Origin: Moniliella sp. 'wahieum'
Lineage: Eukaryota
NCBI GenBank assembly: GCA_003971905.1
Contig: RSEE01000066.1
Span: 372,001 to 397,582 of the forward strand
Direction of reading: 5' to 3'
DNA length: 25,582 bases
Shown here: positions 8,575 through 13,135 of the stretch, one piece after another
How positions within the stretch are numbered: the stretch's first letter is position 1
Layout: every line of letters starts with the position of its first letter
Notes under the pieces: model-generated
Seen by the model: only the letters and a program-made list of their open reading frames with translations
Database searches by the model: none
Told to the model about the DNA's origin: nothing
Translations under genes and position numbers: made by a program

Positions 8575-9735
8575 CTCTGAACAATAGCCCACCCGGGTTG
8601 GACAATACGATACATTACGATGACTGTCACCACCTTGCATATAGCTTTCGTACTGTCCCCGCTCATACTCCCACAGAGTTTGTTCCAGTTCGTCAAATTG
8701 GACCCACTGCTGACGGTCGATCATCCCATCCGAGAGATTTTGACCCGCGCACGAACATACTCTTTTAGGGAAAGCTGGGGATCAAAGTACCTTTTCTTTG
8801 AAAGTGACGGTCCTTGCGACACGCATACAAAAAGGAAAAACAGGAGCCACAGAGTCGGCCAACGTGCACTCCCGATGTGGAACCAGAGCTATTGCCATCA
8901 TGTACGCCTCGCCCCCCCGATCTTGGTCAGGGGCGTCTGCCTCTTCAAACAACTCAAGGCTTATATACGTGAGCTAGAGAAAAAAGGTATCGTCGCCAAT
9001 GCCACTTTTCTCGTCGGTGGACGGTTTATATTGGACAATAGCACGCTCGTACAGGCCACGGATCTTGTTGCGGGAATGAATCGCCTCTGGGCAGGCTAAC
9101 GCATCCCCCTGATCCCACGTGGACTCGTACACTCTCCTGCTCGAGTTGTTGAAAACCAGGTATCGAAGTCTGTGATGGACCATAGTTGTATTACCCGGTT
9201 GGGCCAGCTGCTCCTCATGCTGGATTCTCCTCTTGTCCAACCCGGTATCTTCCTCTGGCATCTTGGAGATTGTCAAACTGTTTCTCAAACCGGTGGTATA
9301 GGAAGCATATACACACCTGTGGGCTCTTTTTTGGATTGCGACAGCCGTTCCAAGATATACTTTTCCCAGTAGCACAAAACTGTTGGGTGGGGGGTTGCCG
9401 CTTGCTTATTAGGCGGCCCAGGTGCAAGTTGAAAGTTGAACGTTGAAACCTCCAGCCAACGCCGCACTTTGCAATTTGAACGTTTAGGGGCGGTGGCGTC
9501 TGACATAAGCGGATTCTCCACGCTGGCCTCCACAGTTGGGTGCTGTGCAGCTGAGGTAAGCGGCGCGAAGATTTTTCCTTTTTCCAGCGCGCTTCGAGAA
9601 GCAATGCTTGTGGATGCAAACCACCACCTGTTTTCTTCTTTCCAGCTCAGCCCCCTCCCCCACCATCACCACCCCCATCCGCCCATCCCCGCTCCAGCCC
9701 CACATCTTGGGTAAGTCGCACGCTGCTCCTGATGC

Positions 9736-9820
9736 GGACATGATGCTTTTGGTTCGATTACATGACCGCCTTTTGCACGGCAACATGGATACAACATTTT
9801 TCGCATTTATGCCTGATCCT
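9736..9820 (+). ncRNA. Intronic box C/D snoRNA; D' guide antisense to LSU rRNA UAAUCGAACCA (predicted Um at ~yeast 25S U922)
   Basis: Box C-like ATGATGC 9740-9746; guide TGGTTCGATTA 9750-9760; D' ATGA 9762-9765; degenerate C' ATGGATA 9785-9791; box D CTGA 9813-9816; short terminal stem GGA/TCC. Confidence 0.7.
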
Positions 9821-9978
9821 CCTTACCCCAGCCCTACCGAGCTGTTTTGCTGACCAGCCCTGCGCTACGCTACCAGACTCGCGCCACGGCGGTGCATCCC
9901 TCTGGCCGACCGCTCCCTCGCCCTTCCTGGTTTCTGCCTCGGACACAACAAGACGTGAGTACCATCTTCCCACCCACT

Positions 9979-10056
9979 CTCTCTGATGAGTAACTTACAC
10001 CATCTTTCGTTTGAGCCAAGGGCTATGATCCTCTTTTGATTAGTCTTCCTGACCCA
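9979..10056 (+). ncRNA. Intronic box C/D snoRNA, snR39/snR59 (SNORD32A/51)-type guide for LSU Am807, with a second guide to ~A917
   Basis: Box C CTGATGA 9983-9989; guide CACCATCTTTCG 9998-10009 is the reverse complement of conserved LSU CGAAAGAUGGUG; D' TTGA 10011-10014; AGCC/GGCT hairpin; C' ATGATCC 10025-10031; second guide TTTGATTAGTCTT 10035-10047 against LSU AAGACUAAUCGAA (one G:U); box D CTGA 10049-10052. Confidence 0.9.
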
Positions 10057-10221
10057 TCCACCTCCCCTGGCTTGTCTGGGCCCGAATGGAACAAAATCAG
10101 AATGCTGACCATTGCTCTTGTTGGTTGCACAGCCTTTTCTGTCCCGAGTTGCTTGCTACACGCGCGCTCTCACAGCGAATCTACACTGGTACGTCCCTCT
10201 TTCCTTTGCCCTCCTTCTGGC

Positions 10222-10342
10222 GTACCACCCGCCTGTTCGCCTCGCGCTTTTGGCGCGGCCCAACCATGGTACATAGTTGCGCAATTCATCACACTACACC
10301 TCATGTTCGTCTCGTGGTTTGTTATGGTAGCGTGTACGATTT
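10222..10342 (+). ncRNA. Possible H/ACA snoRNA (two hairpins; both boxes non-canonical as written)
   Basis: Hairpin 1 closed by GTACCA (10222-10227)/TGGTAC (10267-10272) with an internal loop and a CGCGC/GCGCG top stem; hinge ATAGTT; hairpin 2 closed by GTTGC/GTAGC; ACGATTT at 10336 where ACA-NNN is expected. Confidence 0.3.
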
Positions 10343-10542
10343 CATCAGCTCCGCTACAGATGTAACGCGTAGCGCTGGTCTATACATGCCGGGAGGGGCG
10401 GATGAGATCTGAGAGGATGTACAAGGGGGAACAGATGGCATGTTTTGGAAGGGGGTACAGACAACGCAAGGCCGCAGGAATTACTAAGTAGGAAGAGTCG
10501 TCGAAGAACCAAGCCAAGGGCGGCCCACCTGAGGCTCAGGGC

Positions 10543-13135
10543 TCAGGGCCCTGTTCCCAATGCCGGTGGTTCCAACGACAGAGCGTGCTGCCACCCCTCG
10601 GGGAACAGGTCGGGGTCCTCGGCCGGGTTGGCCAGGCCTTGGGCCAAGACGGTTTGTTTGGCGCGTTTGGTGCTGGCCAGCTCGGCCTTCCATGCTTCCA
10701 CGACGGCAGGCACCCGCGAGGGCGCATACGTGCGTGCAAACAGCGCTGCCTCGGCCGTGCGCTCGGCACCTTGCAGCAACGCAATGCACCCGTCCACGTC
10801 GCCCAATTGAAGCAGGGCCGAAAAGGCGACGTTGGTCAGCTGCTTTTCTTGCGCCAGCTCGGCAACGGTGCTCAGCAGCGCACGGTCCCCCTTGGCCACC
10901 GCCAGCAACAAGCGCCGACACATCGCCCGCCTTGCTAAAGCATTCTTGCGCCAAGTTCAAGTCCCATTGGGCCAGCGCTTTGTCTCCCAGCGTGCGCCAG
11001 TGCGCCTCGCTGCCCGCCGCCGGCTCGGCACGCGCAATGTTGAGCGCCACCTCGAGTTGATTGAGGTTGATGGCCAATTCGAACCGCTGGTCCGGATCTT
11101 GCGCCACCGACAGCGCCAGCTCCGTCTCGCCGTGCCCCTCGAGGAAGCGGGCTACGCGGTTGAGTTGGTCAGGAGGAATGTCGTGCAGCAGTTCGGCGGC
11201 TGCGTCCTTGTCGCCTTGGAGAATCAAGGTTTGGTATTGGACCATGGCGAGCGACAAGGCATAGCTGTAGATTGTCAGGTCTTTGCCCACCACGTACACG
11301 CGGCTGTGGGTGGGCAAGTAGCCCAGAATGTAAAGCTCGCTTCAGGAAGGAAGACAAGGAAGGAGGGAAGGAAGAAACGGTTAGTCTCAGAAAAAAAGAG
11401 AGAGGGACCAAGGCAAAAAGAGGACAAAAGGAAAGACGTACGTATCGGTATGACTGATTGTGTACGTTTGATCGCCGACGAGGTATTGAAGCTTGTTGTT
11501 GGTGGTGGTGTAGAGCAAGCACTCTTCCGTCCACTTGGCGGAGCGGACAGGATCGTTAACCTCGGCCACCACGTCCAAGCTGTCCTCCACCCCTTCGTCG
11601 CCCAGGTCGGCAGGGGTTTGCGCCGAGGCCAAGGCGGCCTCCAAGGCCATCGGGTTGTAGCGCAGCACGTAAAACGAGTCGTCACCAACGATGCTCACCA
11701 GCTCGCCCGAACGGGACCAAGCGACCTGCTTCGCCTCAACATCAATCCGCCGCACCAGCGCACCCGAATCCCAATCGTAAAAGCACACAAACCCATCCCC
11801 GACCACCGCCAACAGAGCCCCGCCGAAAACGGTGGTCACGGCATAGCCCAACGATAAGAACGCCTCGCGCTCTTTAAAGTTGCGGTACACCTTGACGCTT
11901 ATCGTCCGTCTTGACCGCATACGTGGTCGAGTCGTGGGACCAGGCAAAGGCCGAGCCCGGACCAAACGCTTTGTTGCGCCAGGCCAACGCGGTGTAGACA
12001 ACGTACTCGCCATCTCCGACGGCGGTGACGAAGCGGCCGTTGGGCGAATGGTGCAGCGCTTGTGCGTACGACTCCAAGTGGCCCAGTTCGCGCGTGGGCA
12101 CAATGAGCGCCTGGCCATCCGATGCCGTCTCGTCCGCTAGCGCTCCCACGTTGGCACTGTGAATCTCGAGGTTCTTGGCATAGATCACCTTGCCTGCCTG
12201 GTCCATGCTCACCACCGGTTCCTCCTTACCCAGCTTGACCACGACCAGCCCATTGTCGTACCCAAGCGCCACGTCGTTGCTCGCCTTGCTCACCGCTGCG
12301 CACCAGCACCGCTCCAGACCATAGTCCAATAAACTTTCTGTCCGGTACGTCGTACTGTCCCACACCGCACCGTGCCATCTTCCGCGCCCGAAATGAGCAC
12401 GGGAAGACTGGGATGGTAGATGGCAAAGGAGACGTTGAACGCATGGCCTTCGAGCGTCTGCACGCACGACTTGGTCAGGTAGTCCCACTTTGATCGTCTT
12501 GTCGTCCGAGCAGGTGATGAGGTAGGGCTTGTCGCTGCCAGGGTAGTAGTCGACGTAGTTGACCCCGCGCTCGTGCGCTTCGAGGGTATAGTTGGGCGTG
12601 GTGATGCCGCTCGGCCCGAGGCCGGCACCAATCGTCCACACCTTGACTGTGCGGTCGATCGAGGCCGAGGCAAAAGTGTTGGAGTCCTTGGGGTTGAACA
12701 CAAGGTGCATAATGTAATGCGTGTGGCCCTCAAACGTCTGCACGTGCTTCCAGTTCTTGTCCCAGTCAAACAGCCGGATGGACATGTCGTCGCTGCCGGT
12801 CAGGATAAAGGGCAGGGTGGGGTGCACGGCCAGGTGCGGATGTAGTCCGGGTGCGCCTCAAACTGCACCACCTTCTCCGACGTGTTGTAGTTGAACACGC
12901 GCAACTGGTGGTCATCTGCACCCGCCACAAACCAATGCTTGCGTGCGACGAACTTGGCCGTGCGCACCGGCACAGGCGCCACATCAAACGACTTGACCAG
13001 CGCACCCGTCGTGTAGTTGGTGATCTGCACCGTGCCATTGTACAGCGCAGCCAGGACCCAGGGCTCGGTCGGGTGGAAGTCGAGCGCCTTGACGCGGTCG
13101 GAGCGCGCGACAATGCGCCGGTTCAGCTCGAGCAT
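10543..13135 (-). CDS. SEC27: Coatomer (COPI) beta' subunit; intron 11340-11441; about 5 apparent frameshifts
   Basis: [130 protein letters not shown]. The intron GTACGT...ACTAAC...AAG joins [13 protein letters not shown]. Exact stop (10543 vs ~10484) is uncertain. Confidence 0.97.

Follow-up and report, generated by a model that had tools for sequence, protein, structure and literature searches.

A fungal intron within the window analysed here, a 25,582-nucleotide stretch of the Moniliella sp. 'wahieum' genome, very probably encodes a guide RNA that directs the methylation of two rRNA adenosines. The element is best explained, with high probability in our judgement, as an intron-encoded, double-guide box C/D snoRNA carried by a non-coding host transcript. 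This assignment draws on features observed directly in the genome: the boxes, complementarity to the organism's own rRNA, the +5 register, conservation, intron geometry and redundancy of one of the two guides. The locus comprises the following features:

9983..10052, + strand: box C/D snoRNA (span of boxes C to D); recognised by its boxes, its duplexes with large subunit (LSU) rRNA and 94% identity with distant copies
9983..9989, + strand: box C, (C)TGATGA; 6/7 of the consensus, the first base being C and not a purine in all four copies
9998..10009, + strand: D' guide, CACCATCTTTCG; 12 bp with LSU rRNA, -19.2 kcal/mol, predicted target the equivalent of yeast A807
10011..10014, + strand: box D', TTGA, from the sequence
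10015..10023, + strand: short GCC/GGC hairpin, from the sequence
10025..10031, + strand: box C', ATGATCC, from the sequence
10035..10047, + strand: D guide, TTTGATTAGTCTT; 13 bp including one G-U with LSU rRNA, -14.9 kcal/mol, predicted target the equivalent of yeast A917
10049..10052, + strand: box D, CTGA; exact consensus
9955..10132, + strand: predicted host intron (178 nt); GTGAGT donor, branch point GCTGAC (A at 10108), CAG acceptor
9525..10340, + strand: predicted non-coding host transcript with several introns; donor sites conserved at 9556, 9711, 9955 and 10190
9740..9816, + strand: neighbouring C/D snoRNA, in the predicted intron 9711-9876; present in all four copies

Boxes C and D, the defining motifs of C/D guide RNAs, are both present and are kept in 4/4 genomic copies of the locus, and the mature RNA probably extends from about 9979 to 10056, or ~78 nt. 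A purine occupies the first position in 92% of fungal C boxes, a preference from which this box departs. The internal pair (TTGA and ATGATCC) is degenerate, as is usual in fungi; because both D' and C' lie off consensus, activity at D' is less certain. A terminal stem was not seen in the snoRNA at 9983-10052, a structure that is also missing from more than 40% of fungal C/D snoRNAs, and folding of the same segment revealed nothing beyond shuffled sequences (z 0.94).

To identify the targets, all duplexes of the 78-mer were searched against 15 kb of rDNA from the organism's own genome (contig C33). The two longest duplexes are the two guides. The D' guide pairs over 12/12 Watson-Crick positions with LSU CGAAAGATGGTG, and the fifth base upstream of D' lies opposite the second A of CGAAAG, the A807 equivalent. 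The D guide pairs over 13/13 positions, one of them G-U, with LSU AAGACTAATCGAA, and the fifth base upstream of D faces the A of GACTAATC, the A917 equivalent. Both antisense elements thus fall within the 10-21 nt found before D or D' in C/D guides, match the species' own rRNA and obey the +5 rule. The predicted target adenosines are 110 nt apart, the same spacing as between S. cerevisiae 807 and 917 and between S. pombe 839 and 949. When the 22 nt before each box were shuffled, the observed duplex length was equalled in 48/20000 cases for D' (0.0024) and 22/20000 for D (0.0011), rates that are to be read per box because the candidate was picked after the fact. The target sites are exact in 36/37 (A807 region) and 33/34 (A917 region) rDNA matches, and the single mismatched match at either target has its mismatch outside the paired stretch. 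A sequence-only reading of the locus had proposed a double-guide box C/D snoRNA aimed at A807 and at a residue near A917, and had named alignment to the species' own LSU rRNA as one check. That alignment bore out the proposal: the boxes lie where it had placed them, the guides are in register, and neither paired stretch contains a mismatch. The rDNA matches themselves are spread over 33 contigs, many of them within ~20 kb of a contig start; possibly the rDNA is dispersed and subtelomeric, or the contigs are broken at rDNA.

Conservation within the genome is concentrated on the snoRNA. The locus is present four times in synteny in this one genome: the copy studied here (contig C66), a close relative at 93% identity (C17) and two more at 72% over the matched part (C147 and C26). 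Compared with the two distant copies, the snoRNA retains 94% identity, against 39-57% for its flanks and the exons. The D guide is identical in 4/4 copies. The D' guide is intact in 3/4, with its 12 bp and the D' box unchanged between copies whose flanks are ~43% identical, and within 10011-10031 the sole change in the distant copies is in the hairpin loop. In the C17 copy the D' guide is reduced to 9 bp (-12.1 kcal/mol, versus -19.2). Such shortening fits relaxed selection on a redundant guide, but it could be an assembly error. The four loci fall into two pairs, alike within each pair and strongly divergent between them, which suggests that the genome is hybrid or polyploid and holds four subgenome copies.

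The predicted host intron shows a similarly preserved geometry. The distance from box D to the branch-point A is 56 nt in 4/4 copies, with flank identity of just ~43%. No ATG was found in any frame of the predicted spliced host exons examined, and between distant copies these exons contain indels and share 39-49% identity. The motif GGCCTCCACA (9525-9534) and the first donor region (9550-9580), which lie just ahead of the host introns, are conserved between distant copies, and this stretch is a possible promoter element. The host transcript is convergent with a SEC27/beta'-COP gene on the - strand (10484-13135). The reading frame of that gene shifts several times, owing either to introns or to assembly indels. 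Among the best 120 relatives of a piece of the SEC27 protein, the named ones are mostly basidiomycetes, at ~65-75% identity; on this basis the host fungus is called basidiomycete-like.

A second C/D snoRNA is located one intron upstream. Its D' guide (9750-9760) forms 11 bp with LSU rRNA and predicts methylation at the U922 equivalent; 196/20000 shuffles equal this duplex length. The U922 duplex (LSU 919-929) overlaps that of the A917 guide (914-926), and the 3' part of the neighbour may add pairing near LSU 910-915. A derivation of the neighbour from a decayed snR60 is unsupported, as its 3' region pairs over 7-8 bp (12 in one copy) near LSU 910-915, outside the +5 register. The neighbour has no Rfam match, the available part of the S. 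pombe methylation table has no row for 922 or 954, and a literature search returned no report of Um922 or its equivalents. The U922 guide is possibly more novel than the A807/A917 snoRNA.

The two guides differ in how many other RNAs in the genome carry them. An exact guide-plus-box pattern for A917 gave four matches in the assembly, which is possibly incomplete, and all four are this snoRNA. Because the pattern also fits the ascomycete form with the guide before D', no canonical CD39 is seen in the genome. In contrast, the corresponding A807/G805 pattern gave 13 matches: three are this snoRNA, seven are of the snR39B type, one lacks snoRNA context and two belong to another intronic snoRNA. 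The snR39B-type (G805) copies (L015, L017-L020, L022 and L024) outnumber the four copies of the studied locus. The other intronic snoRNA carries an A807 guide before a canonical CTGA box D and occurs at L026:1439-1517 (C127), L023 (C33) and L087 (C44), the third copy having a one-base deletion that looks like an assembly error. It also contains, before an off-consensus D', an element complementary to the region of the 18S G1271 equivalent. Its target pair is that of human U32A (the A807 equivalent and the 18S G1271 type), with the positions swapped. A loose 18S G1271 guide pattern matched 221 times, versus 80 for the control, and none of the eight exact matches inspected (of nine) was snoRNA-like. 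Taken together, guiding at A917 is probably the main, non-redundant task for which the RNA is selected, and guiding at A807 one that it shares.

In box C/D snoRNPs, the core proteins Snu13, Nop58, Nop56 and fibrillarin/Nop1 assemble on RNAs that, when intronic, are released from the intron and then trimmed by exonucleases, with fibrillarin adding a methyl group to the ribose that lies opposite the fifth base upstream of D or D'. By analogy with this established mechanism, we infer expression, splicing-linked processing and methylation for the present RNA. The non-coding host transcript would be spliced, and the intron would be debranched and trimmed by exonucleases to a protein-protected core, the ~78-nt RNA shielded by the four core proteins. 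The D guide would then set fibrillarin on the A917 equivalent, and the D' guide would target the A807 equivalent, a task it would share with the second intronic snoRNA.

In a rival arrangement, the RNA guides at A917 alone, the D' element is a relic or an aid to folding or pre-rRNA binding, and A807 is methylated through another snoRNA. The second A807 guide with its canonical CTGA box is a ready candidate for that role, and the shortened D' guide of one copy and the non-canonical TTGA and ATGATCC boxes point the same way. Against this stand the D' box and the full 12 bp of its guide, which are unchanged between copies with flank identity of ~43%. The Rfam consensus sequences of Me28S-Am982 and SNORD51 place the guide before D' too, as is described for U32A, and divergent C'/D' motifs have been reported to be usually active. 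We consider the single-guide arrangement improbable.

Two further explanations are much less likely. The main target might be another RNA, such as an snRNA or mRNA, or the RNA might act as a non-methylating pre-rRNA chaperone bridging two regions of domain II. Nothing in the data favours either directly, the nearest precedent being C/D RNAs reported to make extra pairings without methylation, and each duplex is in precise +5 register with a residue that is methylated in S. pombe, so that we assign this explanation a very small probability. Still less credible is a chance assembly of motifs in an unexpressed intergenic region. The failure of any Rfam family to reach its gathering score would suit such a view, which is opposed by the low per-box shuffle rates, the strong local conservation and the conserved splice signals and spacing. 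The double-guide, intron-encoded snoRNA thus remains the preferred reading.

Searches for relatives were conducted at several levels. Rfam gave no match at gathering level in the whole window, and matches to mir-540 and MIAT were taken as chance. The 5' half of the snoRNA aligns weakly to Me28S-Am982 (21.5 bits against a gathering score of 49, E 0.73), which is the best result within clan CL00054 (Me28S-Am982, SNORD51, SNORD33/32 and Z196), none of whose thresholds was reached. A genome search with the SNORD33 family found no match among the 60 of 3439 candidates that were scored. A metagenome scan for the guide pair returned 47 matches, of which 0/47 had box C or D at its expected position; for lack of the boxes they were taken as chance, and because the collection is not a fungal genome set, this result is no evidence of absence. 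No literature report of an A807/A917 guide pair was found, and the main-text sections available of PMC5824354 do not mention it; the supplement of that study, which covers basidiomycetes, may list it in its families CD_39 or CD_47.

Both predicted target sites are known from other organisms. Background information was taken from the available parts of PMC5824354, PMC2780460, PMC4138321, PMC4605285, PMC5062969, PMC5033589, PMC3116282 and bioRxiv 10.1101/2024.11.18.622494. In S. pombe, mass spectrometry found Am839 (yeast 807) 99.8% methylated and Am949 (yeast 917), which lies in the ribosome interior, 98.6% methylated. Low-dNTP primer extension also located Am949, for which snR83 was named as the guide. 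In N. crassa the listed homologue of snR83 is CD39, whose D' guide of 13 bp is predicted to act on 26S Am897, and CD39 is reported in every Candida species examined. The Am949-type site is described as missing in humans, in plants and also in budding yeast, and the LSU A917 equivalent is reported as unmodified in humans. The sequence-only reading had noted that Am917 is not in the S. cerevisiae map and had suggested that the pairing may be lineage-specific. The former agrees with the S. cerevisiae mass-spectrometry table, whose available part contains neither a row for 917, nor one for 915 (the numbering there is offset by two), nor any fragment that matches; the latter fails for the site itself, since S. 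pombe Am949/snR83 rules out A917 as new or lineage-specific, as do the CD39 RNAs of Neurospora and Candida. With both sites known in other species, novelty extends at most to their being combined in a single RNA, and lineage specificity may apply only to the A807/A917 pairing and to the move of the A917 guide from D' to D.

Comparison with individual families places the snoRNA between several known systems. snR83/CD39 (CD_39) shares its target (Am949/Am897, yeast A917), has an antisense element that is essentially identical and is likewise intronic. However, in snR83/CD39 the guide lies in the 5' half, before an AAGA-type D' box, whereas in the studied snoRNA it precedes box D. The second guides also differ, that of CD39 being predicted for 26S Am375 and snR83 being listed as a single-guide RNA, in contrast to A807 here, and there is no apparent likeness outside the guide. 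On the A807 side, S. cerevisiae snR39/snR59, S. pombe snR39 and plant Z196/R39/R59 have the same target and antisense element, but their guide precedes box D and not D', as seen for S. pombe snR39 and for the consensus of Z196. The C'/D' motif of budding yeast snR39 was inactive in an assay. From its guides, the studied snoRNA would work like snR83/CD39 plus snR39, while fitting the guide position of neither family, and we propose it as a functional stand-in for ascomycete snR83/CD39.

The position of the A807 guide finds its counterpart in clan CL00054, where U32A/SNORD32A, SNORD51 and Drosophila Me28S-Am982 carry it after box C and before D', as here. The sequence-only reading had likened the 5' half to vertebrate SNORD32A, and on guide position the two agree. 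The D guide of U32A is directed at 18S G1328 (yeast G1271), unlike that of the studied snoRNA, which is directed at LSU A917. One could speculate that an animal-type U32/U51 scaffold with A807 at D' was kept in a basidiomycete lineage and gained the fungal A917 guide at D, and that it forms with the Um922 neighbour a cluster of two snoRNAs, so far undescribed, with guides that overlap on LSU 914-929; this descent is rather doubtful, though less so than the alternatives weighed above. Because of the overlap, the two guides would have to act in turn or yield differently modified ribosomes.

If the preferred reading is correct, Am917, tied so far to ascomycete snoRNAs in the sources available, would extend to a basidiomycete-like fungus, and the locus would offer a clear example of reshuffled guides, one of them moved from D' to D. 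It illustrates why homology tools miss such RNAs, and its four copies form a natural test of redundant-guide decay. No mechanism is changed, as the two sites, this class of RNA and the swapping of guides are already known. For fungi, recombination of guides and second guides confined to a lineage are on record, and shifts between D and D' are called sporadic in the fungal snoRNAome (PMC5824354). The host likewise resembles the UHG/gas5-like fungal cluster hosts, which also carry one C/D snoRNA per intron in a non-coding multi-intron transcript, and differs from them in a snoRNA content that has no counterpart among the S. pombe and N. crassa snoRNAs of the available tables.
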